A DNA stretch of 64,000 nt. It comes from an uncultured Gammaproteobacteria bacterium (GTDB lineage: Bacteria > Patescibacteriota > Patescibacteriia > Magasanikbacterales > UBA922). Numbering within the stretch: the first letter of the stretch is position 1; the number at the start of each line of letters is the position of its first letter. The notes under the pieces are model-generated. The model had not been told where the DNA came from, searched no databases, and worked only from the letters and a program-made list of their open reading frames with translations. The translations under genes and the position numbers were made by a program. Below, in pieces: positions 5,317 to 61,372 of this stretch. The stretch is from assembly GCA_964435035.1 (NCBI GenBank), contig CAYSXR010000004.1:676-64675 (forward strand), written 5' to 3'.

Positions 5317-5347
5317 AAAAAATCCTCTGTAAATCAGAGGATTTTTT
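5317..5347 (+). terminator. Rho-independent terminator after rplL
   Basis: AAAAATCCTCTG-taaat-CAGAGGATTTTTT. Confidence 0.8.
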
Positions 5348-5362
5348 AATTTTCTAATGTTT

Positions 5363-5457
5363 AAATTATTCTAATTATACTAATTGACCTAAGTGCTTTA
5401 AAATTTATTTTGATTTTTTTTAGAATAATTAGAGTAATTAGAACAATTAGGTTAATT
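5363..5457. repeat. Family A intergenic iteron palindrome, copy A1
   Basis: Left arm of three 9-mers (AATTATTCT, AATTATACT, AATTGACCT), a spacer, then right arm AGAATAATT, AGAGTAATT, AGAACAATT, AGGTTAATT, which are reverse-complement 9-mers. Lies between the convergent rplL and the membrane protein gene. Confidence 0.7.
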
Positions 5458-8414: not shown

Positions 8415-8445
8415 GATCGCTAGGGTTGATAAACTATAGAACTTC

Positions 8446-8554
8446 AAAATTATTCTAATTGTACTAATTGACCTAATTATTCTAATAAGAATTAGAAAGT
8501 GGCAGGGTTTTTAATCTGGGATTTTTAGAATAATTAGGGTAATTAGAATAATTG
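8446..8554. repeat. Family A iteron palindrome, copy A2
   Basis: Four left 9-mers (AATTATTCT, AATTGTACT, AATTGACCT, AATTATTCT), a 40-nt spacer, then right arm AGAATAATT, AGGGTAATT, AGAATAATT, ending 12 nt before the ATG at 8566. Confidence 0.7.
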
Positions 8555-11935: not shown

Positions 11936-11997
11936 TTATAATTTTAAAAGAGATAAGATTTATTGTTTTCTAGTAAAAGAGTAAAAAGTTGGTTTTT

Positions 11998-12030
11998 ACC
12001 AGATAACTAGCAAACCAGTAAACTAGATAA
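11998..12030 (-). repeat. Family E 8-bp periodic CTRGTT repeat, copy E1 in reverse orientation
   Basis: Reverse complement reads ATCTAGTT-TACTGGTT-TGCTAGTT-ATCTGGT. Lies immediately upstream of mreB. Confidence 0.5.
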
Positions 12031-12039
12031 CGAGCTATT

Positions 12040-13041: not shown

Positions 13042-13050
13042 TTAACAACT

Positions 13051-13116
13051 AACAGTGAGCAATTAACAAGAATTTAAATTTGTTAATTGTTAGTTGCTCA
13101 CTGTTAATTTTATTTT
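13051..13116 (+). terminator. Long imperfect hairpin plus T-tract after mreB
   Basis: AACAGTGAGCAA/TTGCTCACTGTT outer stem with inner TTAACAA/TTGTTAA, followed by AATTTTATTTT. Confidence 0.55.
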
Positions 13117-16315: not shown

Positions 16316-16412
16316 ACATTGATTACGCAGATTGAATATGGATTTAGACTGAAAATTCAGGATTTTCCATGTTAATCAGTTTAAATCAATAATAATCAGT
16401 TTAAATCAATGT
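16316..16412 (+). repeat. Family B structured leader element, copy B1
   Basis: ACATTGATT...AATCAATGT termini (9-bp inverted). Internal GGATTTAGACTGA pairs with TCAGTTTAAATC through a G-U-compatible mismatch. Ends 3 nt before the frr ATG. Confidence 0.65.
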
Positions 16413-19917: not shown

Positions 19918-22900
19918 ATGGTGAAATTTAAGAAAAATAAGCAGAAGTTAGTGAAATCACAATCACGTAATTCTAACAGCAAATGGGATTTTGCTGCTTA
20001 TTGGGTTTGGCATGAATTGTTATTATCATATGGTAGACTTCGTAAAACTACCAAAACTCGTACAGCAAAAAAAGAACTTAATGCTCTTGGTAAACAAATC
20101 ATGCGTCATTATGTAAAAAACTTTGTTTATTTTCCTGTTTGGCTTTTTAAATTTCTTACGCCTTCATATCTTAAAGGTCCAGTAAATGTATGGACCAATT
20201 TACGTACCATTCTCCGAAGTTCTGAATTTCGTCCTCTTCGACTCGCGGTGGTTTCACAGGCAGTCTTTTGTTTTGTTTTTATTAGGTTGGGAATGCTTAT
20301 TTTTTATAACCTTTCAACTCCAGCTGATGCTGCTACGTTTGGATGGATACAGACTACGTGGACTGGGGGAGTCTCGACTACTGTTGCAGCTACGCATTCG
20401 AGTGATCGAACTGGCTGGACGACATATGCGAGTTCTACTCAAGTGAACACTACTGTTTCATCTGGAAATATTACTATTGCAACTTCATCATACATAACGA
20501 CAGATGATAGCACACTTAGTACTGATGGTCTTGCAAGTGGTGGTGGATTTGCAAATGGTGTCACCTCTAGCGTGGTAGTGAACGGCGGAGATGTTACTCT
20601 AGGTATTGCATCTGCTGGTGGAGAAATTAATCAGTGGGATGCTACTCCATATAATCTTCCTGCTACTATTAGTGGTACCGAAGATGGTAATGGAGTTATG
20701 GTGACTGATGGCGTTGATGCTTTTTATATCCTTCGTGGGGGTGGAACGACTGGGTTTTATAAATTTATTCCTTCTGATAAAACAACGAGCACTCTTACCT
20801 CTGTGCCTACCTCTATACCTCCCAATGGGGGTGGGGGAACGGTTGCGTTGTCTGGTGATTATATTTATCTGTATTCTGGAGGTAATAGTAATGTTAAATT
20901 TTACGCATATTCGATTTTGGGGAATTCATGGACTACTCTTACTAATCCGCCTAGTTCACCTTATGGTGACGGTATTGGTAGTACCATGGCTGTTGATGCT
21001 TCAGGAAATATTTATTTTGCAGCAGGTGGAGCAACAACAAATTTTTTAAAGTATACCGTAACTTCAAGTGCTCCGTATGGGGCATGGAGTGTGTTGTCTA
21101 GTATTGGAAATTCTGTGGGAAGAGGCTCTCGAGCAATATATGATAGTGAGAATAATGATATCCTTATCCTTACAGGTAATAATGGTCATACCATAAGTAA
21201 GTACGATATTGATTTAGGTACGATGACTAATTATGCTGGTGCTCCTAATGACCCTGGATTTACGTCGGGTGCTTCGATGGTAAAAAATGATGACAACGAT
21301 ATTGTATATGCAATTACCGGTCAAAACTATGCATGGCTTGAGAGATTGAATTTGAATAGTGGCACATGGGCATCAAGACAAACTTCTTCAACACCTGCTG
21401 CAGGAAATACAGTGGGGTATATGATACATAAACCTGGAGAAAACAGGATTTATACCACATTTGGAGGAACTAGTTTTTACTATTTACGACCACAACAAGG
21501 GGATTGGCAGTTCACTACCACGACTAAGCCAATTCCTGGATCAATCGGTGCGGGTGCTACCATGATTCGTCACAATAATGATGAAATTTATGTATTGGCT
21601 GGGGGAGGGAGTAGTGCTATTTATCGTTTTGCTATTAATGCGGGTACTCAATATACAGCTACAGGTACACTTACTTCTGCAACAATTGATCTTAAATATG
21701 CAACTTCTACTCGGATTTCATGGTCCTCGAGTGCGCATGGTCAGACTGGGTCAAATCCAGTAAAGTTTCAAGTTGCCGCAAATACGGATAATGCTACCTG
21801 GAGCTATGTAGGTCCTGATGGAACTTCAGGAACGTACTTTACTAGTTCTAATACTGCATTGCCTGGATCATTGAATGGAAAAAGATATTATCGATATCGA
21901 GCCTATTTAACTACTGCAAATACTTCATTTACTCCTACACTTAGTAGTGTTACTTTTACGTATCATAGTTATTTGACTTCTGGTTCACTCGCGTCAAATC
22001 CTTTTAATGCTGAAGATGACACTAATGTGCTCGCTGCGGTTTCGTGGGCGGGAAGTGTTCCGGCGGGTACCGTGATTAAATTCCAAGTGCGTACTAGTCC
22101 TGATAATGCAGTCTTCACTTCATGGATGGGTCCGGATGGAACTTCTGGTACGTATTTTACTGACAGTAGTGGTGCGCAAACGATGCCTGCTCTGTTGACC
22201 GATGGGGAAGATGATCGTTGGATTCAGTATAAAGTATTTTTTGAATCTGATGGAACAGGAACTCCGATTCTTGAACAAAGTACACTTACGTATGTAGTGA
22301 ATGCACCTCCGGAGATTACTATTACGAATACGGTTTCTACTACTTCCAGTGGTGTTGTAGTGGTGAATTATGACGTGCGTGATATTGATAGTGCAACGGG
22401 TGCTACGCCTGGTGTGGTTGCTGTTGCGCTTCAGTATTGTACGGCGAGTTGTTCAAGTGTGGGGAATGAGGTGTGGGCTACAGCAGTAACTTCAAGTTTG
22501 TCTGGTACGTTTGGTTCGAGCGTTGCAGTGGATACTGTTTCGACTACTCAATATACAAGTTATTCATTGACTTGGACTCCCACTAGTTCTTATAATAACC
22601 AGTATAATGGATCGAATTTTAAAATCCGTCTTCGTGCGAATGATTCTGAGGCGGCAAATAATATCGGGGTTGATGAGTCCAATACTTTTGTATTGGATAC
22701 TACTGATCCTTTACCTTCAATTATTATTGATGGGAGAAGTATTGCGACCAGTACACTTTCGATTAGCGTTACTGATGATACAATGGCAGGATTAGAAATG
22801 AAATTATCAAACGACAGTGACCTATCTTCGGATGGATTAAATGGAAGTTCGGGTACGTGGATTCCGTATACAACAACCTCGACGTGGAATTTGGGTACTG

Positions 22901-25900
22901 GAGGAACAACGGTCTATTACCAGGTTAGGGATGCATTTGGAAATATCTCTGCAAATGGTATTATCTCATCTGCAGAGACTCCTGAAATTCCTGGAAATTT
23001 ATTTTTTAAAGATATTTCGAACTCTGATACTTTGGAATGGCGAGAATTTATTGCATGGCAAATTATTGATGATCCGACTCCTGGATTTGCACAATACGCA
23101 ATTTATCGTTCAAGCGATGGTATTAATTATACTGAAATTGCTACTCAAGTATCACGTATTATTAATTATTATCTTGATACTGATATTGATACAGGAACGG
23201 TTTATTATTATAAAGTTACTTCAGAAGATAGCGATGGTAATATTTCGGCATTTTCGACTATTGTATCTGATAATCCGAATGGAACGGGAGGAACTGATGT
23301 GTCTGCGCCGACTATTTCCAATGTTACGACGAGTTCGATTGGTTCAAATTCAATTACGATTACCTGGGAGACTGATGAAGTTTCTGATTCGTATATTGAT
23401 TATACGACTGAAGAGGGAAGTGACTTTAGTAATGTGGATACGGTAGGTCTGACGACGATGCGAAATAATGCTGCAGGACTCGGTATTCATATAGTTTCTC
23501 TCACGAATCTTGCACCAAACACGACATATTATTTCCGTGTACGATCTCTCGATCCTGATGGTAATGAGGGAATTGGCACGCAAGCTCCTAATGGATACGT
23601 ATACACGACGCTCACTGGACCGATTATTTCAGATGTTTCAACTGCTGAAATTCGAAATACTCAGGCAACAGTTACATGGAGTACTGATCAGGATAGTGAT
23701 TCGTATGTAGTTTTTTCTACCTCTTCAAGTTTTACTGCGTCTTCGACTGTAGGTTCACCTCTCACTGTGTCATCGCATGAGGTAGTTCTGCCTTCGCTTC
23801 TTCCGGGGACTACGTATTATTATTATGTTCAATCTGGGCAAGTAACTGATAAGAATACTATCGAAGGGCAGCATGAATATTATACGTTTGAAACCACTGC
23901 GGATATTACGGCTCCAGTAATTACGTTTGATTCTGGGGGAGACGTGGTTGTGTCTGATACTTCATTGGTAATTACTTTTAGCACCAACGAGACTGCAACT
24001 TCTACGATTAATTATGGTACGAGTCTTTCATATGGGTCTGTGATCGCTAATAATAATCTTAATTCTGACCACCGTTACGTATTTACTGGACTTCTTCCAG
24101 GTACTGCATACTATCTGAGTATGCGTGTTGCGGATGTTGATGGAAATATATCAAGCGCCCTTCAATTTAGTGTTACTACTACTGATAGTGCAGATTATAC
24201 TCCGCCTATCATTACGAACGTAACTTCGAGTGTGGTGACTGATGATGAAGCACTTATACTCTGGTCAACTGATGAGGGCGCTACTGGAAAAGTGTATTAT
24301 GGTACGACGAGCACGGTATACACTGAATCAAGTGATTTAGTTTCAACTTACAATCGTGAACATTTTATGACTCTCAGTGGGTTGACTACTTCAACAGAGT
24401 ATTTTTATGTAGTTGTATCAGCTGATGTAAGTGGAAATAGTAGTACTTCAACTGAGTATTCATTTACCACTCTCGAAGAATTATCTGAAGAAAGCGAAGT
24501 GCGATTGCGTGAAGAAACTGCGTACGCACAAGGGCTCGCCGATGGTACTCCACCACCAGATTTTGTGGCACCAATCATTTCGAATGTTACTTCGACGGTG
24601 GTGACTGATGATGAGGCTCTTATTATCTGGTCGACTGATGAGGGTACAACGGGACGGGTTCATTATGGTACCACTCCTTCAACGTATACTGAATCAAGTG
24701 ATTTAGTTGCTACATTTAATAGTGCGCATGCAATTACCCTTCATAATCTTACTACTTCTACGCAATATTATTTTGTTGTAGTGTCTGCTGATTCTAGTGC
24801 AAATACTTCTACTTCTGGCGAATATACGTTTACCACACTTGAAACACTCTCAGAAGAAAGTGAAGTGTTGCTTCGTGAAGAGGCTGCTCGAGCAGAGGGT
24901 GTAGTACAAGGGTCTGCAACAGTACCATCAAGTGGTGGGGGAGGAAGTTCTGTTGATCGAACACCTCCTATTATTTCTGATGTGTTGGTGAACAATATCG
25001 CCTCTGATTCTGCTACGATCAAGTGGAATACGAATGAAAATGCTAATACATTGGTAGAATTTGGAAAGACCATTGAATATGGTCGAGGCTCACTCGATCT
25101 TGAAAATGTACAAGTACATACGATTGATTTGGTTGAATTACTTCCTCTCACTACTTATTTTTATCGAATAAGCTCAATTGATACTACAGGTAATCGAAGT
25201 AGCCCAGTAACCGGATCGTTTACCACTGTTTCACTCGCTGAAGAAATTGCATCAAGTACCGAAAATATTATTGAAGATATTGCAGCAGACGAAAAAAATA
25301 CTGATGCTGCAGAGGAATTGTTTCTCTCTACTATCGAAAAAGCTGGACAAATTATCAAGAGTCTCGCTGGTCGTGTGAGTGTTGGTGTACTTGAGACATC
25401 ATTACTTGCTCAGGCACAGATTATCGAACAATTGTCTGACATTTTGCCATTACCTATTATCGGTGGACAGCCTGTAGTTGATGCAGGATCGAATTATGCT
25501 ACAGTTTCGTGGAGTACTGATAAAAATGCAAATTCATTGGTTGAGTTTGCGCCTGAAGGAGAGTTTTTGTCTGATAAGACCTATGATCAGACGGTAGGAG
25601 AGCCTACGGCTTCCCGAACTGGGCATGTGGTTGAAGTGAAAGGATTGCTTCCTGATACGGTATATCATTATCGTGTGGTTTCTCGTACACAAACGGGATC
25701 TGAAACAAAGTCTCAAGATTTTGTATTTAGAACGAAATCTCAAACTAACGAAATTACGAATTACAATGTAGTTGTTCTCTCTCCTGAAGAAGTTTCTTTT
25801 TCTTGGAATACCACGGTACCTACCGATTCTGCAGTTGTGTACACACCTTATCGAAATGGGGTACCTCAGATTGAGGCACGGCAAGTAGTACGACAAGCTG

Positions 25901-26424
25901 GACTCACTACACAGCATTCTCTTAAGGCTGTAGGATTTGAAGCAGGTGTTCTCTATGATGTTGAATTGCTTGGTACTGACACAGGAAACAATGTATCGAG
26001 TAAGGTAATTAAAGGCTTTACTACCGAAGGAGAGGATCTTGTGCCAGTGATTTCCCAGATACAGACTGATGCGGCGATTGTACCTGGAGGGAAAGAAAAG
26101 ATTCAAATTATTATTTCATGGCAGACCAATGAATTATCAACGAGTAGATTATTTTATCGTAAAGGATTTGCTGCTGATGGTACTCAATTTACCGCAAGCA
26201 CTACTCTTGATCAAAATTATACAAAAAAACATGTGGTGGTGGTTACGAATTTTGAACCGGGTACCGTCTACCAATTTGTGGTTGAGAGTATTGATTCAAG
26301 TGGTAATACAGGTATTTCAAAAACAATTACTATCCTCACTCCTCAAAAAGAACAATCAGTGTTTCAAGTCATTTTTAGTAACGTAGAAGATATGTTCTCG
26401 TGGGTCGGTAAACTTAGAAATTAG
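19918..26424 (+). CDS. Giant (2168 aa) cell-surface protein with an N-terminal TM anchor, beta-propeller-like repeats and many fibronectin-III / purple-acid-phosphatase-N-like domains
   Basis: Single 6.5-kb ORF. TM segment LAVVSQAVFCFVFIRLGMLIF. Repeated I(T/S)W(E/S)TDE...YY(F/Y)RV FN3-like units. Internal near-identical tandem repeats. Confidence 0.8.
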   Translation: MVKFKKNKQKLVKSQSRNSNSKWDFAAYWVWHELLLSYGRLRKTTKTRTAKKELNALGKQIMRHYVKNFVYFPVWLFKFLTPSYLKGPVNVWTNLRTILRSSEFRPLRLAVVSQAVFCFVFIRLGMLIFYNLSTPADAATFGWIQTTWTGGVSTTVAATHSSDRTGWTTYASSTQVNTTVSSGNITIATSSYITTDDSTLSTDGLASGGGFANGVTSSVVVNGGDVTLGIASAGGEINQWDATPYNLPATISGTEDGNGVMVTDGVDAFYILRGGGTTGFYKFIPSDKTTSTLTSVPTSIPPNGGGGTVALSGDYIYLYSGGNSNVKFYAYSILGNSWTTLTNPPSSPYGDGIGSTMAVDASGNIYFAAGGATTNFLKYTVTSSAPYGAWSVLSSIGNSVGRGSRAIYDSENNDILILTGNNGHTISKYDIDLGTMTNYAGAPNDPGFTSGASMVKNDDNDIVYAITGQNYAWLERLNLNSGTWASRQTSSTPAAGNTVGYMIHKPGENRIYTTFGGTSFYYLRPQQGDWQFTTTTKPIPGSIGAGATMIRHNNDEIYVLAGGGSSAIYRFAINAGTQYTATGTLTSATIDLKYATSTRISWSSSAHGQTGSNPVKFQVAANTDNATWSYVGPDGTSGTYFTSSNTALPGSLNGKRYYRYRAYLTTANTSFTPTLSSVTFTYHSYLTSGSLASNPFNAEDDTNVLAAVSWAGSVPAGTVIKFQVRTSPDNAVFTSWMGPDGTSGTYFTDSSGAQTMPALLTDGEDDRWIQYKVFFESDGTGTPILEQSTLTYVVNAPPEITITNTVSTTSSGVVVVNYDVRDIDSATGATPGVVAVALQYCTASCSSVGNEVWATAVTSSLSGTFGSSVAVDTVSTTQYTSYSLTWTPTSSYNNQYNGSNFKIRLRANDSEAANNIGVDESNTFVLDTTDPLPSIIIDGRSIATSTLSISVTDDTMAGLEMKLSNDSDLSSDGLNGSSGTWIPYTTTSTWNLGTGGTTVYYQVRDAFGNISANGIISSAETPEIPGNLFFKDISNSDTLEWREFIAWQIIDDPTPGFAQYAIYRSSDGINYTEIATQVSRIINYYLDTDIDTGTVYYYKVTSEDSDGNISAFSTIVSDNPNGTGGTDVSAPTISNVTTSSIGSNSITITWETDEVSDSYIDYTTEEGSDFSNVDTVGLTTMRNNAAGLGIHIVSLTNLAPNTTYYFRVRSLDPDGNEGIGTQAPNGYVYTTLTGPIISDVSTAEIRNTQATVTWSTDQDSDSYVVFSTSSSFTASSTVGSPLTVSSHEVVLPSLLPGTTYYYYVQSGQVTDKNTIEGQHEYYTFETTADITAPVITFDSGGDVVVSDTSLVITFSTNETATSTINYGTSLSYGSVIANNNLNSDHRYVFTGLLPGTAYYLSMRVADVDGNISSALQFSVTTTDSADYTPPIITNVTSSVVTDDEALILWSTDEGATGKVYYGTTSTVYTESSDLVSTYNREHFMTLSGLTTSTEYFYVVVSADVSGNSSTSTEYSFTTLEELSEESEVRLREETAYAQGLADGTPPPDFVAPIISNVTSTVVTDDEALIIWSTDEGTTGRVHYGTTPSTYTESSDLVATFNSAHAITLHNLTTSTQYYFVVVSADSSANTSTSGEYTFTTLETLSEESEVLLREEAARAEGVVQGSATVPSSGGGGSSVDRTPPIISDVLVNNIASDSATIKWNTNENANTLVEFGKTIEYGRGSLDLENVQVHTIDLVELLPLTTYFYRISSIDTTGNRSSPVTGSFTTVSLAEEIASSTENIIEDIAADEKNTDAAEELFLSTIEKAGQIIKSLAGRVSVGVLETSLLAQAQIIEQLSDILPLPIIGGQPVVDAGSNYATVSWSTDKNANSLVEFAPEGEFLSDKTYDQTVGEPTASRTGHVVEVKGLLPDTVYHYRVVSRTQTGSETKSQDFVFRTKSQTNEITNYNVVVLSPEEVSFSWNTTVPTDSAVVYTPYRNGVPQIEARQVVRQAGLTTQHSLKAVGFEAGVLYDVELLGTDTGNNVSSKVIKGFTTEGEDLVPVISQIQTDAAIVPGGKEKIQIIISWQTNELSTSRLFYRKGFAADGTQFTASTTLDQNYTKKHVVVVTNFEPGTVYQFVVESIDSSGNTGISKTITILTPQKEQSVFQVIFSNVEDMFSWVGKLRN
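24193..24890 (+). repeat. Tandem duplication of two roughly 366-bp units (about 80% identical) inside the giant protein gene
   Basis: PPIITNVTSSVVTDDEALILWSTDEG...SEESEVRLREE versus APIISNVTSTVVTDDEALIIWSTDEG...SEESEVLLREE. Confidence 0.8.
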
Positions 26425-26448: not shown

Positions 26449-26478
26449 TTGACAAAATGCCCTAGTTTTACGTATACT
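26449..26478 (+). promoter_or_regulatory. Promoter of glyS
   Basis: TTGACA, 18 nt, TATACT. Confidence 0.55.
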
Positions 26479-26630
26479 ATCTTTCGATAAGCTGGGGTAA
26501 TGATAAGAGGTGGCTCTCTTTGAACTTTTGGCTTATATTACATAAAAAAGTGTCCCGACTTAGTCGGGAAACTTGGGTGGAACCCCCGGTCGAATGGCTG
26601 GGCCCAAGACCATTAGAGTGGTCTTTTTTT
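26479..26630 (+). promoter_or_regulatory. Probable T-box riboswitch leader (glycine-specific) with an intrinsic terminator
   Basis: T-box-like AACTTGGGTGGAACCCCCGG (consensus AGGGUGGNACCGCGG) followed by terminator AAGACCA-ttagag-TGGTCTTTTTTT. A GGC triplet lies in the upstream loop region. Positioned before a glycyl-tRNA ligase gene. Confidence 0.5.
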
Positions 26631-26632
26631 AT

Positions 26633-26722
26633 ACATTGATTCAAACAGATTAATACAGATTACACAGATAGATGTATTTGTATTTTCAGTTTAAATCCGT
26701 TTGAATCAGTCTAAATCAATGT
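26633..26722 (+). repeat. Family B structured leader element, copy B2, between the T-box terminator and the glyS ATG
   Basis: ACATTGATT...TCAGTTTAAATCCG...AATCAGTCTAAATCAATGT; ends 3 nt before the ATG. Confidence 0.65.
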
Positions 26723-26725
26723 TGT

Positions 26726-28036
26726 ATGTCTCAAGATACCATGGAAGCTCTTATATCATTATGCAAACGTCGAGGTTTTGTTTTTCCTGGGAGTGAAATT
26801 TACGGGGGTCTTGCTAATGCATGGGATTACGGTCCATTGGGTGCGCAGATGAAGAAAAATATTAAAGACTTGTGGTGGAAGCAATTTGTTGAAAGCAGGA
26901 TCGATATGGTTCCCTTTGATGGAGCAATACTTATGAATCCAAAAGTGTGGGAAGCGAGTGGGCACGTGGCAACCTTCAATGATCCATTAGTTGAATGTAA
27001 AAATTGTCATGGTCGTTTTCGAGCTGATCAGGTGGATATTTCCAAAAATTGTCCAACCTGTGGAAAAAAAGATTGGACCGAAGCTAAACAGTTTAATCTG
27101 ATGTTTAAAACGTCCATTGGTCCCTCAGAAGAAAGTGCTAATACGGTGTATCTTCGTCCAGAAACTGCCCAGGCAATGTTTGTAAATTTTAAACAGGTTG
27201 CAAATACGAGTCGAAAAAGACTTCCTTTTGGAATTGCACAAATTGGAAAAGCATTTCGTAATGAAATTACGCCCGGGAATTTTATTTTCCGAACACTTGA
27301 ATTCGAACAAATGGAAATTGAATATTTCATTGAAGAGAATGAGTGGGAAAAATTGTTTGAAAATTGGTTGAAAGATACCTATTCTTTTGCTCGTGCATTG
27401 GGAATCAAAACGGATCTTATGCATGATTTGGAAGTTCCTGAAGATGAACGAGCACATTATTCCAAACGCACTGTTGATATCATGTTTGATTTTCCCTTTG
27501 GACAGAAAGAGTTGTGGGGTCTTGCGTATCGTGGGGATTATGATTTGCGTCAGCATGAAGCACACTCAAAACAATCTCTGGAATATACGGATCCTCTCGA
27601 TAATAAACGAAAAATAATTCCGCATGTGATTGAGCCTTCATTTGGAGTAGATCGAACATTGCTTGCTGTTCTCGTATCTGCATACGAAGAGCAATTGGTA
27701 AAAGAAGGGGATACACGTGTTGTGTTACACCTGAAGCCGGCAATCGCTCCCTATCATGTTGCCGTATTGCCACTCATGAAAAAAGACGGACTTGCTGAAA
27801 TTGCACAGACATTACACTCTGAGTTATTGAAATATTTTAGAGCAGATTATGATGAATCGGGAAGTGTGGGAAAACGGTATCGAAGACATGATGAAATTGG
27901 AACTCCGTTTTGTGTCACAGTGGATTATGAATCAAAAGATGATAATTGTGTCACCGTTCGCGACCGTGATACAATGACGCAGGAGCGGATGAAGATTGAG
28001 GATTTACCTGAGTTTTTGCGAGGAAAAATGATTTAG
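26726..28036 (+). CDS. glyS: Glycine--tRNA ligase (class II, alpha2 type)
   Basis: LCKRRGFVFPGSEIYGG...GPLG class II motifs; about 436 aa. Confidence 0.85.
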   Translation: MSQDTMEALISLCKRRGFVFPGSEIYGGLANAWDYGPLGAQMKKNIKDLWWKQFVESRIDMVPFDGAILMNPKVWEASGHVATFNDPLVECKNCHGRFRADQVDISKNCPTCGKKDWTEAKQFNLMFKTSIGPSEESANTVYLRPETAQAMFVNFKQVANTSRKRLPFGIAQIGKAFRNEITPGNFIFRTLEFEQMEIEYFIEENEWEKLFENWLKDTYSFARALGIKTDLMHDLEVPEDERAHYSKRTVDIMFDFPFGQKELWGLAYRGDYDLRQHEAHSKQSLEYTDPLDNKRKIIPHVIEPSFGVDRTLLAVLVSAYEEQLVKEGDTRVVLHLKPAIAPYHVAVLPLMKKDGLAEIAQTLHSELLKYFRADYDESGSVGKRYRRHDEIGTPFCVTVDYESKDDNCVTVRDRDTMTQERMKIEDLPEFLRGKMI

Positions 28037-28050
28037 TTATAGATAAAATT

Positions 28051-28160
28051 AAATTATTCTAATTATACTAATTAACCTAATTGTTTTAACACTCATAATA
28101 TAGGTTGAAAGAATGTATACGTTTAGGTAAATTAGAATAATTAGAGTACTTAGAATAATT
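28051..28160. repeat. Family A iteron palindrome, copy A3
   Basis: AATTATTCT, AATTATACT, AATTAACCT ... AGGTAAATT, AGAATAATT, AGAGTACTT, AGAATAATT; ends 9 nt before the ATG at 28169. Confidence 0.7.
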
Positions 28161-28168
28161 TTTTACTT

Positions 28169-29428: not shown

Positions 29429-29484
29429 AACAGGTTACACGCGAAATTTGAATGAATCGAATTTATGAATAGGAGAAAAGTTTT

Positions 29485-29514
29485 CTGGTTTACTGGTTGT
29501 CTAGTTGTCTGGTG
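29485..29514 (+). repeat. Family E 8-bp periodic repeat, copy E2
   Basis: CTGGTTTA-CTGGTTGT-CTAGTTGT-CTGGTG. Confidence 0.5.
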
Positions 29515-32900: not shown

Positions 32901-33358
32901 TACACTATGTCGTGTAGCACTTCGTCTGCATGTATTTCAGGTTTTACATTTTCGTAGTGTTTGAGAATAGTGCCCTCAGGACTGATGAGAAATGATTCTC
33001 GAACTATTCCCATATTTTTTTTACCAAACATTTCTTTCTCTCTCCATACTCCATATGCACTAATTACTTTTTTTTCAGGATCAGCGAGGAGCGGAAAATT
33101 TAAGTGAAATTTTTTAGCAAATTTTTTGTGTGACTCTATGTCATCAGCACTTACACCTAAGACTTGTACGTTTTTTTCTTTGAGTTCATTTAACCTGTCT
33201 TGAAAATTACACGCTTCGGTGGTGCAGCCAGGTGTGTCGTCTTTGGGGTAGAAATAGAGGAGTACATATCTGCCTGCATATTCTGCAAGACTGTGTGTGG
33301 TGCCAAATTGATCCTGGAGCGTGAAGTCAGGGGCTGGTGAATGGAGTGGGGGAGTCAT
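32900..33358 (-). CDS. bcp: Peroxiredoxin (Bcp/thiol peroxidase, AhpC/TSA family)
   Basis: FYPKDDTPGCTTEAC active-site motif. Confidence 0.85.
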   Translation of the reverse strand: MTPPLHSPAPDFTLQDQFGTTHSLAEYAGRYVLLYFYPKDDTPGCTTEACNFQDRLNELKEKNVQVLGVSADDIESHKKFAKKFHLNFPLLADPEKKVISAYGVWREKEMFGKKNMGIVRESFLISPEGTILKHYENVKPEIHADEVLHDIV

Positions 33359-33383
33359 ATAGTATTGATTTAGATTGATTAAA

Positions 33384-33453
33384 AATTGATTATGCAGATT
33401 AAAGAATATGTATTTTCAGTCTAAATCATAATTTAATCTGTTTGAATCAATGT
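33384..33453 (+). repeat. Family B element, copy B3 (degenerate)
   Basis: ATTGATTATGCAGATT...TCAGTCTAAATCA...AATCTGTTTGAATCAATGT; 50 nt upstream of the next ATG. Confidence 0.5.
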
Positions 33454-34298: not shown

Positions 34299-34384
34299 CT
34301 GAGAAAATGAACAATTAGCAATACACAATTAACAGCACAGTATTTTGTTAATTGCTCTTTGATAATTGTTCATTTTTCATTCAT

Positions 34385-38392: not shown

Positions 38393-38467
38393 AAGATTGA
38401 AGATTAAAAACTGAAGATTAAGGAAAATTTAAAATCTTTAGTCTTTAATCTTCAATCTTTTTTATTT
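38393..38467 (+). terminator. Long perfect 16-bp-stem hairpin terminator (family D motif TTTAATCTTCAATCTT)
   Basis: AAGATTGAAGATTAAA...TTTAATCTTCAATCTT followed by TTTTTATTT. The same 17-mer recurs at 45918-45934. Confidence 0.7.
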
Positions 38468-38538
38468 ATTCATATCAGGGTGTGAGCTATTGAAAAAGTT
38501 ATTTATATTCGCTATACTCTGGTAGATAATTAATCCAT

Positions 38539-45883: not shown

Positions 45884-45951
45884 GACTAAGACTAAAGAAT
45901 AAAGATTGGTGATAATTCTTTAATCTTCAATCTTTCTAACACTGTTTTTTA

Positions 45952-47148: not shown

Positions 47149-47236
47149 ACATTGATTACGCAGATTAATATGGATTTAAACAGATTGGATATAATTTTTT
47201 CAGTCTAAATCCGTTTTAATCTGTTTAAATCAATGT
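47149..47236 (+). repeat. Family B structured leader element, copy B4
   Basis: ACATTGATT and AATCAATGT outer stem. GATTTAAACAGATT pairs perfectly with AATCTGTTTAAATC (14 bp). Ends 3 nt before the uppP ATG. Confidence 0.7.
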
Positions 47237-48040: not shown

Positions 48041-48043
48041 TAC

Positions 48044-48092
48044 TTGACGGAAGTTCTTTAAAAGAGTATGATAAGTATGATTTTTCATACTT
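48044..48092 (+). promoter_or_regulatory. Promoter plus palindromic operator of the AbrB-family gene
   Basis: TTGACG, 17 nt, TATGAT; then the palindrome AGTATGA-ttttt-TCATACT spanning the +1 region. Confidence 0.5.
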
Positions 48093-48096
48093 TTTT

Positions 48097-48356: not shown

Positions 48357-50009
48357 ATGAGCACACCTGCACAACTGTCTACAGTCAAACCTTGGTACAA
48401 AAAGAAATGGATCTATATAGTGGGAATTATTGTTCTTCTTGTCGGGGGCTATGTTTTTTCACAGTCACAAAAACAAAACAAAGGACCTTCGTATGAGACT
48501 TTTGTAGTTGAACGAGGGACGTTAACTCAGACTGTTGATGCTTCGGGAAACGTAAAATCAGCAGACGAACTTGATTTACGTTTTGAATCCAGCGGTCGAA
48601 TCGCAAAAATTTATACCGAGATTGATGCGCAAGTTCGTGCAGGAGCATTATTAGCTGATCTAAATTTGAGTGAAGTTAATGCTCGAATTGGGGAGGCAAG
48701 TGCTGGTGTAGGACAAGCTCAGGCTAATTTGTCCCAGATCAAAGCTGCGGGACAGGATGCAATTACGAATGCCAAAGCTGCTGTTGAAAAAGCACTGATT
48801 AATTTGAAATTATCTGAAGGTGGAATGAATAGTGAAATTGTTCGAGATACGTATAATGATGCTTTTGCGCTCATGGTACAGATTCAAGCAACCGTGTCTC
48901 AAGCAATCACGGCGGTTGATAATATTTTGGGCATTGATAATGAATTTGTAAATGATGTGTTTGAAACACAGCTTGGTGTTCAGAAACCAAGTACACTTAT
49001 TTCTGCTCGCAATCAATACCTACTTGCAACCATTGATCAAAATGCTTTTGATGCAAAAGCAAATTCGCTTTCTCTCGCTTCTTCTCAGGCTGATATTGAT
49101 GCGGCGATTATGGTGGCTGATAAAGTACTTACTTCTACCAAAGATTTATTGTATCAGGTTTCTGAAGTTCTTAATACATCGCCAGCAGTTGGTGGTTTGA
49201 CTCAGACTCTTCTTGATACAATGAAATCTTCGATTTCTTCTGAACGTTCTCTTGTTACGGCTAAACTCACTTCTCTTATTTCGCAGAGACAGGCAATTCA
49301 GGATGCAAAAAATAGTTATACTACAAATAGCGTTCTTTATGAACAAGCAAAACAGAATTTGATTAATGCGGAGAATAAGGCTGTGGCAGATGTAGCTGCG
49401 TATGAAGCGTCTATTCGATCTTCGCAAGCATCAGTTGGTGCAGCGGTTGCTAGTCGGAATAAATCTCGTATTGTCGCACCGATTGCAGGTAAGGTTGCTA
49501 AGGTGGCATTTAAGCCAGGTGAATTTGTAACGAGTCAAGATGCGGTGATAAAGCTTGTAAGTCCTCGTTTTGAAGTCAAAGTGGATATCCCAGAAACTGA
49601 TATTGTAAAAATTGCGAACGGAGTTTCAACTACAGTGACGCTTGATGCGTATGGAAATGATGTAAAATTTACTGGAGTGGTAACTGAAATTGAAACGGGT
49701 GAAACAGTGATACAAGATGTGGTGTATTATAAAGTTACCGTAGTACTTGAAGAAAAAACTGAATATCAGATATTAAATGGTATGACTGCTGACGTAATGT
49801 TCTTTACTGAAAATAAAGATAATGTTCTCTTTATTCCTCAACGAGCGATTCGTTCTGAAGATGTCAAAAAAATGGTTCGTATTCTTGAAAATGGACAAGT
49901 CCGTGAAGTGGAAGTGGTTACCGGACTTCGAGGAGATGATGGATTGATTGAAATTGTGTCTGGACTTGAACCAGGTCAGGAAATTGTAATTCGTGAGAAA
50001 GCGGAGTAG
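48357..50009 (+). CDS. Periplasmic adaptor / membrane fusion protein (HlyD/MacA family)
   Basis: N-terminal TM, long coiled-coil, beta-barrel and lipoyl-like motifs (RIVAPIAGKVAKV). Confidence 0.75.
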   Translation: MSTPAQLSTVKPWYKKKWIYIVGIIVLLVGGYVFSQSQKQNKGPSYETFVVERGTLTQTVDASGNVKSADELDLRFESSGRIAKIYTEIDAQVRAGALLADLNLSEVNARIGEASAGVGQAQANLSQIKAAGQDAITNAKAAVEKALINLKLSEGGMNSEIVRDTYNDAFALMVQIQATVSQAITAVDNILGIDNEFVNDVFETQLGVQKPSTLISARNQYLLATIDQNAFDAKANSLSLASSQADIDAAIMVADKVLTSTKDLLYQVSEVLNTSPAVGGLTQTLLDTMKSSISSERSLVTAKLTSLISQRQAIQDAKNSYTTNSVLYEQAKQNLINAENKAVADVAAYEASIRSSQASVGAAVASRNKSRIVAPIAGKVAKVAFKPGEFVTSQDAVIKLVSPRFEVKVDIPETDIVKIANGVSTTVTLDAYGNDVKFTGVVTEIETGETVIQDVVYYKVTVVLEEKTEYQILNGMTADVMFFTENKDNVLFIPQRAIRSEDVKKMVRILENGQVREVEVVTGLRGDDGLIEIVSGLEPGQEIVIREKAE

Positions 50010-50016
50010 GTCATAC

Positions 50017-50135
50017 ACATGAATTCAAATTATTCTAATTATACTAATTGATCTAATTATTCTAAGGGTCTGTAGTGAGTTAGAAATATTATATATTTTG
50101 AATTTTTTAGAGTATTTAGGTTAATTAGAATAATT
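50017..50135. repeat. Family A iteron palindrome, copy A4
   Basis: AATTATTCT, AATTATACT, AATTGATCT, AATTATTCT ... AGAGTATTT, AGGTTAATT, AGAATAATT, AGGAATTCT. Confidence 0.7.
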
Positions 50136-50151
50136 AGGAATTCTTTCTGTT

Positions 50152-51603
50152 ATGATTGATCTCGCCAAAGTGTATATCACGATTGGAAAACTTGCGGAAG
50201 AGAAAAAAGTCCGTGCGCATGCAGTGGGTGGATTTGTGCGCGATATGTTGATGCATCGAGAATCAGTCAAAGATTTGGATGTAGTGGTCGAAGGTAGCGG
50301 TATTGAGTTTGCCAGGGCTTTCGATGAAGCAGTAAAACAAGAGGGAAGTCTGATTGAATTTTCTGATTTCGATACTGCGCGATATGTCTATACGACTGAG
50401 CAGGAGGATGGAAAAACTGAAAAAGTATTTGAACTTGAATTTGCGGGAGCGCGTAGTGAAGCATATAATGAGACTTCACGAAAACCTAAAGTGGTGTCAA
50501 CTACTCTCGAAGAGGATTTGAAGCGACGTGATTTTACGGTTAATGCTCTTGCATTACCGATTACTTCTCTCGGATTGGGTAATGAAATTATTGATCCCTT
50601 TGATGGAGCAATCGATATCGAAAAAAAAATACTTCGAACACCACTTGATCCTGATACGACATTTTCTGAAGATCCGCTTCGTATGCTTCGTGCGGCACGA
50701 TTTGCTTCACAGCTCGGATTTACTATTGAAGATACTGCGTATGATGCAATTACGCGTAATCGTGAACGATTGAAGATTGTATCAAAAGAGCGTGTGTGTG
50801 AAGAATTTTTTAAACTCCTTGCTACGCCGATTCCATCAGTCGGGTTGTGGATTTTGTATCAAACCGGACTTATTAATGAATTTCTTCCTGAGGTAAGTGA
50901 GTTGAATGGAGTTGAAGAATTGTACGGTCATCAGCATAAGAATAATCTCGTGCATACCTTTAAAGTGGTTGATAACATTTCTGAGCGTACGGAGAATGTA
51001 TTACTTCGATTTGCTGCACTCATGCATGATATTGGAAAACCTGGAACCAAATCATTTATTGCTGGTCGTGGTTGGGCTTTTGATATGCATGAACATTTGG
51101 GTCGAAAAATTGTACGTGATGTGGGGCGACGACTTCGAATGAGTAAGAGTGATATCGAATATGTGGCACTGTTGGTACGCTGGCATCAGCAGCCAATTGC
51201 ACTTATGGATGATGGGGTGACTGATAGTCCTGTTCGACGTTTGATTGTAAATTTGAAAGATAAACTTGATGATTTGCTCACACTTTGTCGAAGTGATATC
51301 ACTACTGGAAATCCATATAAGCTCAAGAAACGATTGAAAAATTATGATTTCCTTGAAAAGCGTATTGTAGAAGTAACTGAAAAAGACAAGCTTCGTGCGT
51401 TTCAGTCGCCTGTGCGTGGAGAGGAGATTATGGAGTTGACTCAGCTCAAAGCTGGTCCTACGATTGGAAAAATTAAGAAAGCTTTAGAAAATGCAATTCT
51501 TGATGGAAAAGTAGAGAACGATTATGAAAAAGTAAAAGAATATTTTTTCTCGATTAAAGATGAGTATATGAGTCAAGCGGAGGAATGGGAAAAACAAAAT
51601 TAG
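50152..51603 (+). CDS. cca: CCA-adding tRNA nucleotidyltransferase / poly(A) polymerase family with a C-terminal HD domain
   Basis: GGFVRDMLMHR...DLDVV head domain; RDFTVNALA; HD motif LMHDIGK. Confidence 0.85.
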   Translation: MIDLAKVYITIGKLAEEKKVRAHAVGGFVRDMLMHRESVKDLDVVVEGSGIEFARAFDEAVKQEGSLIEFSDFDTARYVYTTEQEDGKTEKVFELEFAGARSEAYNETSRKPKVVSTTLEEDLKRRDFTVNALALPITSLGLGNEIIDPFDGAIDIEKKILRTPLDPDTTFSEDPLRMLRAARFASQLGFTIEDTAYDAITRNRERLKIVSKERVCEEFFKLLATPIPSVGLWILYQTGLINEFLPEVSELNGVEELYGHQHKNNLVHTFKVVDNISERTENVLLRFAALMHDIGKPGTKSFIAGRGWAFDMHEHLGRKIVRDVGRRLRMSKSDIEYVALLVRWHQQPIALMDDGVTDSPVRRLIVNLKDKLDDLLTLCRSDITTGNPYKLKKRLKNYDFLEKRIVEVTEKDKLRAFQSPVRGEEIMELTQLKAGPTIGKIKKALENAILDGKVENDYEKVKEYFFSIKDEYMSQAEEWEKQN

Positions 51604-51620
51604 GTCAATTAGAATAATTA
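51600..51620 (+). repeat. Family A half-element (right arm only), copy A5, overlapping the cca stop and 6 nt before the next ATG
   Basis: TTAGGTCAATT, AGAATAATT. Confidence 0.55.
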
Positions 51621-51626
51621 CTTGCT

Positions 51627-53630: not shown

Positions 53631-54860
53631 ATGATGTTTAAAGATTTATTTACGATTGCATCGGGAGCATTGCTCAGACAGAAAATGCGCACCATTCTTA
53701 CGGTGGTGGCGCTTAGTATTGGTATTGCGTCAGTTGTTATTATTGTTTCTGCAGGTAGAGGATTGGAATCAATGGTTCTTGGTGAATTGGATGTGTATAG
53801 TCCAAACACCATGAATGTCGAGGTGCGTGTCCCCGGTAAATCGGGTGGGGGCATGACGAGTGGAATCACTATTACCACTCTCAAAAATTCGGATATGGAA
53901 GCTCTTATGAAGCATCCAAATATTTCTCTTGCGTATAGTTATGTCACTAGTCAACAAGTTATTAAATATCGTGAAGAAAATCAGACGGTGACTGTATTTG
54001 GATATGGTGCATATGCTGCTGAAGTAGATAATGTAAAAATTTTAGAAGGAAGATTTTATACACCTGATGAAGAAGCATCCTTGGCACAAGTGGTATTTAT
54101 TGGATCAAAAATAAAAGAAGATTTTTTTGGTGATGACACTGCTATTGGTAAAAATATTTTTATCAAAGGAAAATCATTTCGTGTAGTTGGAGTCCAAGAA
54201 CCAATGGGTGCCTCATTTGGGTTTGATATGGATAGTGTCGTCTATATGCCAACTGAGACACTCCAGAAACGTTTTTTGGGTACGGACTATGTGATGGGGA
54301 TTAATGCACACGTGATTGATATGAGTCAGCTTGATTCTACCAAAGAAGATGTGGAAATGCTACTTCGTGAAAGACATGATATCACTGATCCAGATAAAGA
54401 TGATTTTGAGGTCGCTACCATGGATGAGATTAGAGACACACTTGAAACCGTAGTAGGTGGAATCACCTTACTTCTGATTGCTTTGGTATGTATTTCACTT
54501 ATTGTGGGTGGAGTTGGGATTACGAATATTATGTATGTGACAGTCTCTGAGAGAACGTTTGAAATAGGACTTCGTAAATCGCTGGGTGCTAAGTCACGAG
54601 ATATTTTATTACAATTTTTAATCGAAGCCATGCTCCTTACTTCCATGGGGGGTATCGTGGGGGTAATTTTTGGAGTATTAATTTCATATCTTGTATATCT
54701 TATTGCGACTAGTGTGGGGCTTAATTGGGTTTTTGCTGTACCATTGTATGCCGTGGTACTTGCGATTGGTTTTTCAACTACGGTAGGTTTGTTTTTTGGG
54801 CTCTATCCAGCAAAGAAGGCTGCACGGCTCAATCCGATCGAGGCATTAAGAAAAGAGTAA
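53631..54860 (+). CDS. ABC transporter permease, MacB/FtsX type (second paralog)
   Basis: Same architecture; about 35% identical to the upstream permease by eye. Confidence 0.8.
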   Translation: MMFKDLFTIASGALLRQKMRTILTVVALSIGIASVVIIVSAGRGLESMVLGELDVYSPNTMNVEVRVPGKSGGGMTSGITITTLKNSDMEALMKHPNISLAYSYVTSQQVIKYREENQTVTVFGYGAYAAEVDNVKILEGRFYTPDEEASLAQVVFIGSKIKEDFFGDDTAIGKNIFIKGKSFRVVGVQEPMGASFGFDMDSVVYMPTETLQKRFLGTDYVMGINAHVIDMSQLDSTKEDVEMLLRERHDITDPDKDDFEVATMDEIRDTLETVVGGITLLLIALVCISLIVGGVGITNIMYVTVSERTFEIGLRKSLGAKSRDILLQFLIEAMLLTSMGGIVGVIFGVLISYLVYLIATSVGLNWVFAVPLYAVVLAIGFSTTVGLFFGLYPAKKAARLNPIEALRKE

Positions 54861-54863
54861 ATT

Positions 54864-54963
54864 GAAATTATTCTAATTGTACTAATTGACCTAATAATTC
54901 TAAAATTTAGAATTATTGAAATTTTTTAGGTTAATTAGAATAATTAGAGTACTTAGAATAATT
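54864..54963. repeat. Family A iteron palindrome, copy A6
   Basis: AATTATTCT, AATTGTACT, AATTGACCT, AATAATTCT ... AGGTTAATT, AGAATAATT, AGAGTACTT, AGAATAATT. Confidence 0.7.
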
Positions 54964-54973
54964 TCTCCTTCTC

Positions 54974-58547: not shown

Positions 58548-58613
58548 TAGAACACGGATGACACAGAATTGAACGGAATTAACATGTTTCAGATTCCGCC
58601 TCATCTGTGTTCC
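58548..58613 (+). repeat. Family C structured element, copy C1
   Basis: GAACACGGATGA pairs with TCATCTGTGTTC (12 bp, one G-U), enclosing the inner hairpin CGGAAT...ATTCCG. Confidence 0.55.
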
Positions 58614-58676
58614 ATTAATAATTTTTAAGCTCAATACATATCGAACGGTATGAGTTGAGCAATCGGAGAACAGCAT

Positions 58677-59244: not shown

Positions 59245-59303
59245 TAAAAGTTAAAACGACAAAGTGAAAAAAATTTTAAATAAACTAATCACTAATTAAC
59301 TAA

Positions 59304-61241
<1,938 letters not shown>

Positions 61242-61250
61242 GTTTTCAAA

Positions 61251-61314
61251 TAGAACGCGGATTTAACGGATAACACGGGTATACACGGATTAAATCCGTG
61301 TTATCCGTGTTCTA
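61251..61314 (+). repeat. Family C element, copy C2: interleaved inverted repeats (A-B...A'-B' order)
   Basis: CGGATTTAA and CGGATAACACGG, followed by TTAAATCCG and CCGTGTTATCCG. Confidence 0.55.
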
Positions 61315-61372
61315 TTATATTTATTGGAATTGGATGCTATACTTATATCTCACCTATATTTAACTCATACAT

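Follow-up and report, generated by a model that had tools for sequence, protein, structure and literature searches.

The 64-kb stretch of DNA analysed here (hereafter the window) contains four copies, B1 to B4, of a short palindromic repeat, family B, one of which (B3) fills the gap upstream of uppP at positions 47149-47236. In our judgement, family B is probably a dispersed, non-coding, co-transcribed repeat with fast turnover, resembling miniature inverted-repeat transposable elements (MITEs) and repetitive extragenic palindromes (REPs), which occurs in Candidatus Magasanikbacteria-type genomes of the Candidate Phyla Radiation (CPR) and replaces whole stop-to-start gaps or leaders there. This reading is backed by the anatomy of the element, its dispersal, the statistics of its position, its insertion polymorphism and its lack of covariation. 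A literature search for MITEs or intergenic palindromes of CPR bacteria returned nothing relevant, and we found no description of such elements in this group.

Copies and anatomy of family B

The copies in the window are located as follows:

16316-16412: B1, between the stop of a BNR/sortilin-like gene (TAA 16313-16315) and the frr ATG (16416)
26633-26722: B2, following the terminator of the T-box-like leader of glyS and preceding the glyS ATG (26726)
47149-47236: B3, between the stop of an amino-acid permease gene (TAA 47146-47148) and the uppP ATG (47240)
33361-33453: B4, in the leader of ahpC (minus strand), where it takes up the space between the promoter's −10 box and the start codon (CAT 33356-33358)

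Pfam matches of the downstream genes are RRF for B1, class-II GlyRS for B2 and BacA/UppP for B3. An earlier sequence-only reading had placed copies in front of frr, glyS and uppP and a further one at 33384-33453, and all four sites read as it described. It had, however, taken the fourth copy for a degenerate one, whereas B4 is full-length, with five left and four right units and a left end that adjoins the minus-strand start of ahpC. The outer inverted termini of the copies are:

47149-47157, plus strand: left terminal unit of B3, ACATTGATT, with its inverted partner AATCAATGT at 47228-47236
16316-16324 and 16404-16412: the same termini in B1
26633-26641 and 26714-26722: the same termini in B2
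33445-33453: right terminus of B4, exact; its left terminus is TATTGATT

That these termini are common to the family, as the first reading had it, is borne out by their frequency: ACATTGATT or its complement occurs exactly eight times in the window, against 1.5 ± 1.3 expected, and none of 100 shuffles reached eight. Seven of the occurrences are element termini; the eighth (60623) lies within a long open reading frame (ORF) that reads as DnaK and was taken as chance. A covariance model, built from 16 copies including the four of the window and run with filters off, matched exactly these four (E-values 1e-12 to 1e-16, which are partly so by construction, all four being in the training set). B3 scored 82.5 bits on both strands and B4 (33362-33453) 70.9 bits; the next matches in the window had E-values of at least 0.1 and were to other palindromes.

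Copies of family B are 70-110 nt long and contain no ORF; those in the window have 21-27% G+C. Each arm is an array of three to five units of 9-10 nt that match one another imperfectly (...ACWGATT in the left arm, AATCWGTNT... in the right one). The left-arm units each end in GATT (ACATTGATT, ACGCAGATT, AATATGGATT, TAAACAGATT), the right arm is the inverse of the left (...AATCCGTTTT, AATCTGTTTA, AATCAATGT), and the arms close in an invariant terminus, AACATTGATT / AATCAATGTT, with a centre that varies among copies. The internal GATTTAAAC / GTTTAAATC stems described earlier are present, but they are merely two of the periodic arm units and can pair in several registers. Relatives of the window genome were sampled as genome fragments, not as whole genomes (loci numbered L001 and onwards). 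AATCAATGT hardly varies over the 53 array ends compared, which come from 25 loci, and is followed by T in 49 of them. B1 carries a 20-nt tandem duplication of its right terminal units, and such a duplication of two terminal units is also found in L015 and L041.

One end lies 2-3 nt from an ATG in all four window copies. The full copies B1, B2 and B3 end in AATCAATGT + TAT/TGT + ATG, which agrees with the previous statement that they stop 3 nt before the start codon, and B4 has its left end next to the minus-strand ahpC start with nearly the same spacing (reverse complement AATCAATACT-AT-ATG). Since the left ends of B1 and B3 directly abut the TAA of the upstream gene, the element constitutes the entire stop-to-start gap at these two junctions.

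Dispersal, position and turnover

A scan of one genome per species with the pattern AATCWGTYTRAATCAATGTT, which does not include the start codon, gave 51 loci with about 25 true copies. These were found in Candidatus Magasanikbacteria (six loci of UBA11710, and MFQN01, JBAYVA01 and JBAQFA01), in a Patescibacteria metagenome-assembled genome (MAG; JBAZKA01) and in several MAGs recorded as 'uncultured Gammaproteobacteria'. In all, family B is present in at least ten MAGs. Gene calls in the loci were based on ORFs, and some gene names come from our reading of N-termini. L015 and L011 have the gene order of the window at 70-77% nucleotide identity, and the proteins that are 81-94% identical to the UppP and GlyRS of the window carry the NCBI name Candidatus Magasanikbacteria; we therefore assign the window to this group. 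The records of L003, L015, L039, L041 and L047 (CAYMVY01), as well as others with CAY and CAZ prefixes, are titled 'uncultured Gammaproteobacteria' or 'Thioalkalispiraceae' and all carry family B; given the synteny of L015 and L011 with the Magasanikbacteria-like window and the common repeat family, these labels look wrong. Among 2.9 million viral contigs there was a single match, located inside an ORF and taken as chance, and a phage origin was rejected accordingly. None of 80 frr-centred metagenomic loci (678 kb, RRF 35-85% identical) contained a family-B copy, which argues that the family is lineage-restricted.

The genes downstream of the copies are assorted housekeeping genes. An 8-kb stretch of UBA11710 (L016) has four copies within its S10-spc ribosomal-protein operon, upstream of L2, L29, L24 and L6, and further copies precede the genes for L5 and L11, pth, era, secF, rfbB and mraY-, trpD- and proC-like genes (named from their N-termini). 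Together with frr, glyS, uppP and ahpC in the window, these do not form a regulon, which had been raised as a possibility.

The position of the copies relative to these genes is strongly non-random. An ATG opening a long ORF lies 1-4 nt ahead of 23 of the 53 array ends, compared to 1.4% of the oriented non-coding positions that these loci contain (binomial P ~ 5e-29), and most of the other array ends are followed by TTA, the complement of the TAA of a gene running towards the element. The arrangement TAA (0-1 nt), element, (1-4 nt) ATG is seen in 12-13 of 19 full copies, where the leftover spacer has a median of 3 nt. One-armed copies also exist, some with a stop codon on one side and a G+C-rich terminator on the other (L027, L031, L042, L004), others between stop and start (L013, before frr, and L044). 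The sequence-only reading had staked itself on the existence of further copies and on their placement with respect to start codons, and both were found; this placement, however, reflects gap-filling and not conserved regulation.

Two observations concern the copies themselves. A small G+C-rich hairpin, CCTGCC-N4-6-GGCAGG, is nested in or located beside family-B copies at L033:1941-1960 and L035:1596-1611 and also in L026 and L042; this hairpin may represent a further type of small insert, or else a terminator. Further, the short-read assembly of the same organism (L001, a Logan SRR12762285 contig) ends at window position 47214, 26 nt before uppP and inside B3, as expected for a repeated sequence.

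Comparison of orthologous junctions in close relatives showed that the occupants of the same positions differ between genomes (percentages are identities of the flanking protein):

Permease/uppP: B3 in the window; in L134 (90%) identical flanks with another periodic palindrome, of TAAAGTC/GACTTT units; in L135-137 (81%) an empty 15-nt gap, CTTTAAACATACGGT; in L138 (69%) a decayed family-B copy of 33 bits, with mostly transitions
T-box terminator to glyS: B2 in the window; 14 nt in L139 (94%), 14 nt in L140 (89%), 31 nt in L141 (82%)
ahpC leader: B4 in the window; unrelated 37- and 32-nt leaders next to the same promoter in L139 and L140
M16 peptidase/TIM: another array in the window; in L139 a family-B copy (73 bits) that ends in TGT-ATG; in L140 12 nt, TCTCCTTCTTCT
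glyS/M16: family A (see below) in the window; a family of AAAGATTG units in L139; 11-12 nt in L140 and L141
BNR/frr: B1 in the window; present in L015 (RRF 88%); absent or decayed in L053 (RRF 85%); 8-30 nt in farther syntenic genomes

A right-arm array alone stands upstream of frr in the distant L013, a hint of deep conservation at this gene that the wider sample did not bear out: 48 metagenomic frr orthologues, one of them with an RRF 85% identical, have no family-B copy upstream. In the same genomes, spacers that carry signals are kept in length and sequence, namely the 56-nt promoter of an AbrB/MazE-like gene, the T-box leader and the spacer between FtsX and a giant gene. Since relatives are empty or otherwise occupied at the family-B junctions while these spacers are kept, the element is a variable occupant and not a conserved control region.

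The first of these spacers (48041-48096), which served as our conservation control, precedes an 81-aa AbrB/MazE-like gene and contains TTGACG-N17-TATGAT together with the palindrome GTATGA...TCATAC. It is kept in length and sequence in four genomes with UppP 69-90% identical and is probably an autoregulated promoter. At the neighbouring uppP junction, the UppP orthologue of GCA_964447765.1 (L134:3001-3051) is annotated 17 residues too long (283 vs 266 aa), with its start inside the intergenic palindrome.

Pairing, transcription and start codons

All four window copies can fold into hairpins (z-scores against shuffles −5.2, −3.4, −9.1 and −3.2), the best of which is that of B3 (−35.1 kcal/mol, z −9.1). 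Because the arms are periodic, several pairing registers are available (I2/I13 for B2, I14/I24 for B3), and the minimum-energy fold of B2 uses a shifted register that leaves its last 18 nt unpaired. We analyzed in three ways whether the pairing itself is conserved. RNAalifold on 16 copies retained only 11 invariant core pairs (−2.24 kcal/mol, covariation term +0.24) and found no compensatory change. When arms were paired within and between copies, leaving out the common terminal 9 nt, cis arms (mean −10.3 kcal/mol) were no better than trans arms (−12.7; permutation p = 0.99), and in about 10 of 16 copies the second unit has, at its variable W position, bases that do not pair between the arms. 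Lastly, of 18 copies, 10 gave a more stable fold as sense than as antisense RNA (Wilcoxon p = 0.98), i.e. there is no G-U asymmetry, and the covariance model scores both strands nearly equally. What is conserved is the sequence of each arm, not the pairing. Against these null results, the single G-U-compatible change in B1, which had been read as a sign of RNA-level structure, carries no weight. Rfam searches at the gathering threshold matched only tRNAs, and an E-value threshold over B2 added only chance-level matches to miRNAs and sRNAs.

These results bear on the proposal that family B is an RNA module useful to its host, a co-transcribed hairpin that tunes expression by coupling to upstream termination, by placing a helix beside the AUG in a system without Shine-Dalgarno sequences, or by protecting or processing the mRNA as REP and enterobacterial repetitive intergenic consensus (ERIC) sequences do. 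The stability of the hairpins relative to shuffles is consistent with it, as are the stop-start geometry, with one stem base at the stop and the other at the ATG in 12-13 of the 19 full copies, the presence of B2 in a T-box-controlled glyS leader and of other copies in a ribosomal-protein operon, and the conservation of the arms beyond synonymous sites in one orthologous pair. We nevertheless consider it unlikely, as pairing is not conserved by any of the above comparisons, the B2 fold leaves its final 18 nt free, single-arm copies exist, and the same genes lack the element or have it swapped for another family in relatives 81-94% identical. For the same reasons the translational regulatory leader suggested in the sequence-only reading is not sustained, and a cis-regulatory RNA leader was rejected, there being no conservation upstream of the orthologous frr, glyS, ahpC and uppP genes.

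The conservation of sequence over pairing could also result from an array of binding sites at the DNA level, in which phased GATT/AATC units are the targets of a sequence-specific protein, such as a regulator, a nucleoid protein or a recombinase/transposase, and the palindrome consists of two convergent arrays. The mismatches at the W position, the unit spacing of 9-10 bp, the occurrence of one-armed arrays, the similar scores of both strands and the retention of the same 20-nt terminus across different genera are in line with this. Yet the same genome has several families of identical architecture with different units, and periods in relatives are 7-9 nt, so phasing is not general; these different units and periods argue against one DNA-binding regulator per family and against general helical phasing, and a genome of ~1 Mb is unlikely to encode a binder for each family. 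Given also that there is no coherent regulon, that B2 lies downstream of promoter, T-box and terminator, and that turnover between close relatives is rapid, we regard this explanation as unlikely too.

The transcriptional context of the copies is clearest for glyS, whose leader is the following:

26491-26632, plus strand: T-box-like leader with an intrinsic terminator (26606-26625 plus T run), upstream of B2 and not part of the repeat

This leader matches the T-box family (RF00230) with 39.3 bits and an E-value of 2e-7, below the gathering score of 93, has a strong promoter (TTGACA-18-TATACT, 26449-26478) and is kept in L139, L140, L141 and L064. Its Stem I is very short, and it may be a reduced CPR T-box. 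As B2 lies between the leader terminator and the glyS ATG, it would be part of the read-through transcript. B4 lies between a conserved promoter-like site on the minus strand (33482->33455) and the ahpC ATG, and around B1, B3 and the copies in the ribosomal-protein operon there is no room for signals outside the element. From the promoters, the T-box terminator and the operon context, family B is probably transcribed within the mRNAs of its neighbours.

Against this context, it is very improbable that the element serves as a portable promoter or terminator for its flanking genes. Its location exactly between genes, its AT-rich centre (with TATAAT in B3) and a weak 9/12 promoter-like match in B1 would fit this role, but no copy contains a convincing promoter, B3 has no promoter-like site at all, none of the four copies has a G+C-rich stem followed by a T run, and promoter-like matches in the region are at chance level (65 vs 56.5 ± 8.2). 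Canonical TTGACA-N17-TATACT promoters and G+C-rich terminators occur elsewhere in the window; moreover, four copies stand in one ribosomal-protein operon, and a promoter in B2 would bypass the T-box. A leaderless-mRNA promoter with TAAATC as −10 box was discarded, since the hexamer varies (GTAATC, GCAATC), its final T is absent and B2 follows a T-box.

Shine-Dalgarno-like cores are found upstream of 5 of 42 window genes, which equals the background of 11.7%. There is thus no Shine-Dalgarno signal in these genes, and the idea that family B replaces a missing one, the remaining suggestion of the sequence-only reading, is moot. Of the 42 genes, 37 have a T immediately before the start codon, against a share of 32% for T in the sequence. 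The distance of exactly 3 nt, to which that reading drew attention, corresponds to a TRT tail that is part of the element (T, TT or TTT in other copies) and supplies the usual T at −1; it is not a regulatory spacing. The family-B copy at the M16/TIM junction of L139 ends in TGT-ATG, from which it follows that the TGT before the ATG travels with the element.

Relation to known repeats and to other palindromes

Of the three possibilities raised from the sequence, a MITE with 9-bp inverted termini is the closest. Family B is short and non-coding, has invariant ACATTGATT/AATCAATGT terminal inverted repeats, is dispersed, and is polymorphic in presence and absence between genomes whose flanking proteins are 81-94% identical. 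No target duplication was seen at the copies compared and no transposase among the scanned window genes, so that family B is MITE-like and its membership in the class is only partly supported.

Several points weigh against the repeat being a mobile element of this kind. The flanks of about 20 copies have no consistent target-site duplication, neither the TA duplication that had been suggested as a check nor another one (ATA in B1 and ATATT in L029 are sporadic). A Pfam scan covering about 39 of the ~50 window genes found no transposase, integrase or HUH/RAYT (REP-associated tyrosine transposase) gene, and among the loci examined no longer element is bounded by the same termini; a candidate autonomous partner in L044, with paired termini about 1 kb apart, encloses ordinary membrane and lipoprotein genes. 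Single-arm copies exist, and where family B sits the ancestral spacer is gone rather than split, which simple cut-and-paste does not predict. The frr copies of the window and L015 are orthologous, with arms >90% identical, a diverged centre and synonymous sites at 52%, which suggests constraint or ongoing homogenisation and not neutral decay. Finally, related genomes were sampled as fragments only, so copy counts are not per-genome totals.

On the reading that we favour, copies of family B would come and go quickly in the only dispensable DNA of compact genomes, that is in the 2-15-nt stop-to-start gaps of operons, in the tail behind a leader terminator or in a short 5' untranslated region. 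A copy would replace the spacer completely, so that the start codon adjoins one end and a stop codon, terminator or −10 box the opposite one. It would be carried in the transcripts of the neighbouring genes, where it could form an imperfect hairpin. A trans factor that reads the conserved termini and units may mobilise or copy the element, which would explain the conservation of sequence without pairing, and recombination in flanking genes may spread alleles between strains, which would explain the patchy distribution. Expression would be little affected, as the hairpin would again place the stop codon close to the start codon, and the terminal 9-bp stem would be opened by a ribosome that finishes translation at the adjoining TAA.

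Known intergenic repeats share some of these properties, and family B differs from each of them. The Correia elements (CREE/NEMIS) are gene-adjacent, co-transcribed MITEs of Neisseria. With these and other MITEs family B has in common that it is short, non-coding and AT-rich, with many dispersed copies, terminal inverted repeats and a hairpin shape, located next to genes, probably co-transcribed and polymorphic in insertion between related genomes. It is unlike them in having no TA or other target-site duplication, termini of only 9-10 nt, arms that are arrays of 9-10-nt sub-repeats, an ancestral spacer that is replaced, not split, and no cognate transposase among the scanned window genes.

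The REP sequences of enterobacteria and Pseudomonas, with their compound forms (bacterial interspersed mosaic elements, BIMEs, and the doublets known as REPINs), and the ERIC sequences are likewise intergenic, transcribed, imperfect palindromes in operons, with several families per genome and singlet as well as doublet forms. A single arm of family B, in contrast, is a direct array of GATT units and not a palindrome; it has no GTAG-type head, its ends abut stop and start codons, and the scanned genes include no RAYT gene or Y1_Tnp domain, so that it does not fit the REP/REPIN-RAYT system, whose units are imperfect palindromes of 20-40 nt with a conserved head, associated with a RAYT (Y1 HUH) gene.

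Mycobacterial interspersed repetitive units (MIRUs) lie between the cistrons of operons, with ends that reach up to, or into, the stop and start codons on either side. Family B resembles them in this inter-cistron position with ends at stop and start codons, but MIRUs are direct tandem repeats of 40-100 bp with small ORFs, whereas family B is a palindrome of 9-10-nt units. The short tandemly repeated repetitive (STRR) sequences of heterocystous cyanobacteria form several lineage-specific families of short tandem units in non-coding DNA. They are similar to family B in being multi-family, built of short tandem units and dispersed in non-coding DNA; however, they are runs of heptamers, without two inverted arms with fixed termini and without a tie to stop-start gaps. 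T-box and other cis-regulatory leaders are comparable in forming a 5' leader directly before the start codon, and B2 even follows a T-box, but the position of family B is not kept at orthologous genes, and it has neither covariation nor an Rfam match.

Further candidates were rejected. Integron attC sites, which have core sites at their ends and belong to cassettes beside an integron integrase, do not apply, as the ends (T)AAACATTGATT and AATCAATGTTRT fit neither the RYYYAAC nor the GTTRRRY core and the neighbours are housekeeping genes. TIGR arrays consist of tandem 36-nt units with alternating edge and loop repeats and ~9-nt spacers, beside a Nop-domain tas gene (PMC12045711). Family B has 9-10-nt units, two inverted arms and single copies at operon junctions, with no Nop-domain gene among the scanned window genes. 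Likenesses to DNA uptake sequences (DUS/USS), DnaA boxes, CtrA sites, Fur boxes and rut sites were dropped on sequence grounds or because of the many families per genome.

Family B is not the only periodic palindrome of the window; about 19 of the ~50 gene junctions carry a periodic palindrome or array, with units of 8-10 nt in those that belong to neither family A nor family B:

5338-5458, 8422-8554, 28026-28161, 50002-50145, 54840-54964: family A, which also fills gene gaps; half copy at 51598-51626
13042-13116, 34300-34384 (between two tRNAs), 38393-38474, 45884-45951, 58548-58641, 61249-61316: further palindromes, each with its own unit
11990-12039 (before 12040), 29470-29513 (after 29428), 59270-59309 (before 59310): one-armed arrays

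Family A has arms made of 9-nt units, which read TTATTCTAA in the left arm and TTAGAATAA in the right arm. Syntenic relatives have families of their own at varying junctions, with units such as GATACAAG, TTACGGAT, CTTACAAGGC, AACTTTAT, TAGGGAC and CAAGACT and periods of 7-10 nt.

Tentatively, family B may belong to a so far undescribed class of periodic palindromes that replace gaps in Magasanikbacteria genomes, with several families per genome, each with its own 7-10-nt unit, that overwrite whole spacers or 5' leaders and are exchanged at the same junction between genomes with 90-94% identical flanking proteins. Unusual features are the replacement of gaps, the periodicity of the arms and the very fast exchange of families at fixed junctions. 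Such a class would imply a copy-and-replace mechanism without target duplication or a nearby transposase. A structural role might follow as well, in which a helix 1-4 nt before the ATG, or one bridging stop and start, would organise how translation is initiated or re-initiated in a genome that has no Shine-Dalgarno sequences. CPR/Patescibacteria genomes are thought to be stripped-down and static; if our main reading is right, their few non-coding bases would be held by rapidly exchanging repeat families, even in ribosomal-protein operons and riboswitch leaders.

There are also practical consequences. The elements can mislead start-codon calling, as for the overlong UppP above, contigs break inside the repeats, and the junctions are polymorphic between close relatives, which matters for strain typing. 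For gene expression, the question is how operons without Shine-Dalgarno sequences tolerate a 90-nt hairpin at the start codon. More generally, a conserved hairpin right before an ATG should not be read as a riboregulator without comparative data.

Three observations concern other parts of the region. The first 4000 nt of the window have a G+C content of 0.58, against about 0.39 for the remainder, and encode a 1040-aa DEAD/ResIII helicase (741-3863) and an unassigned 237-aa ORF; this part may stem from a foreign island or from a chimeric join. In L140, an island with an integrase, a ResIII helicase and a DNA methylase adjoins the ahpC/methyltransferase region. Positions 19918-26424 hold a 2168-aa ORF with internal 118-nt repeats (24191-24674), whose orthologues have fn3-, PhoD_N- and Pur_ac_phosph_N-like matches; it separates frr from glyS in the window, and the two genes are adjacent in the farther relatives L013 and L067.

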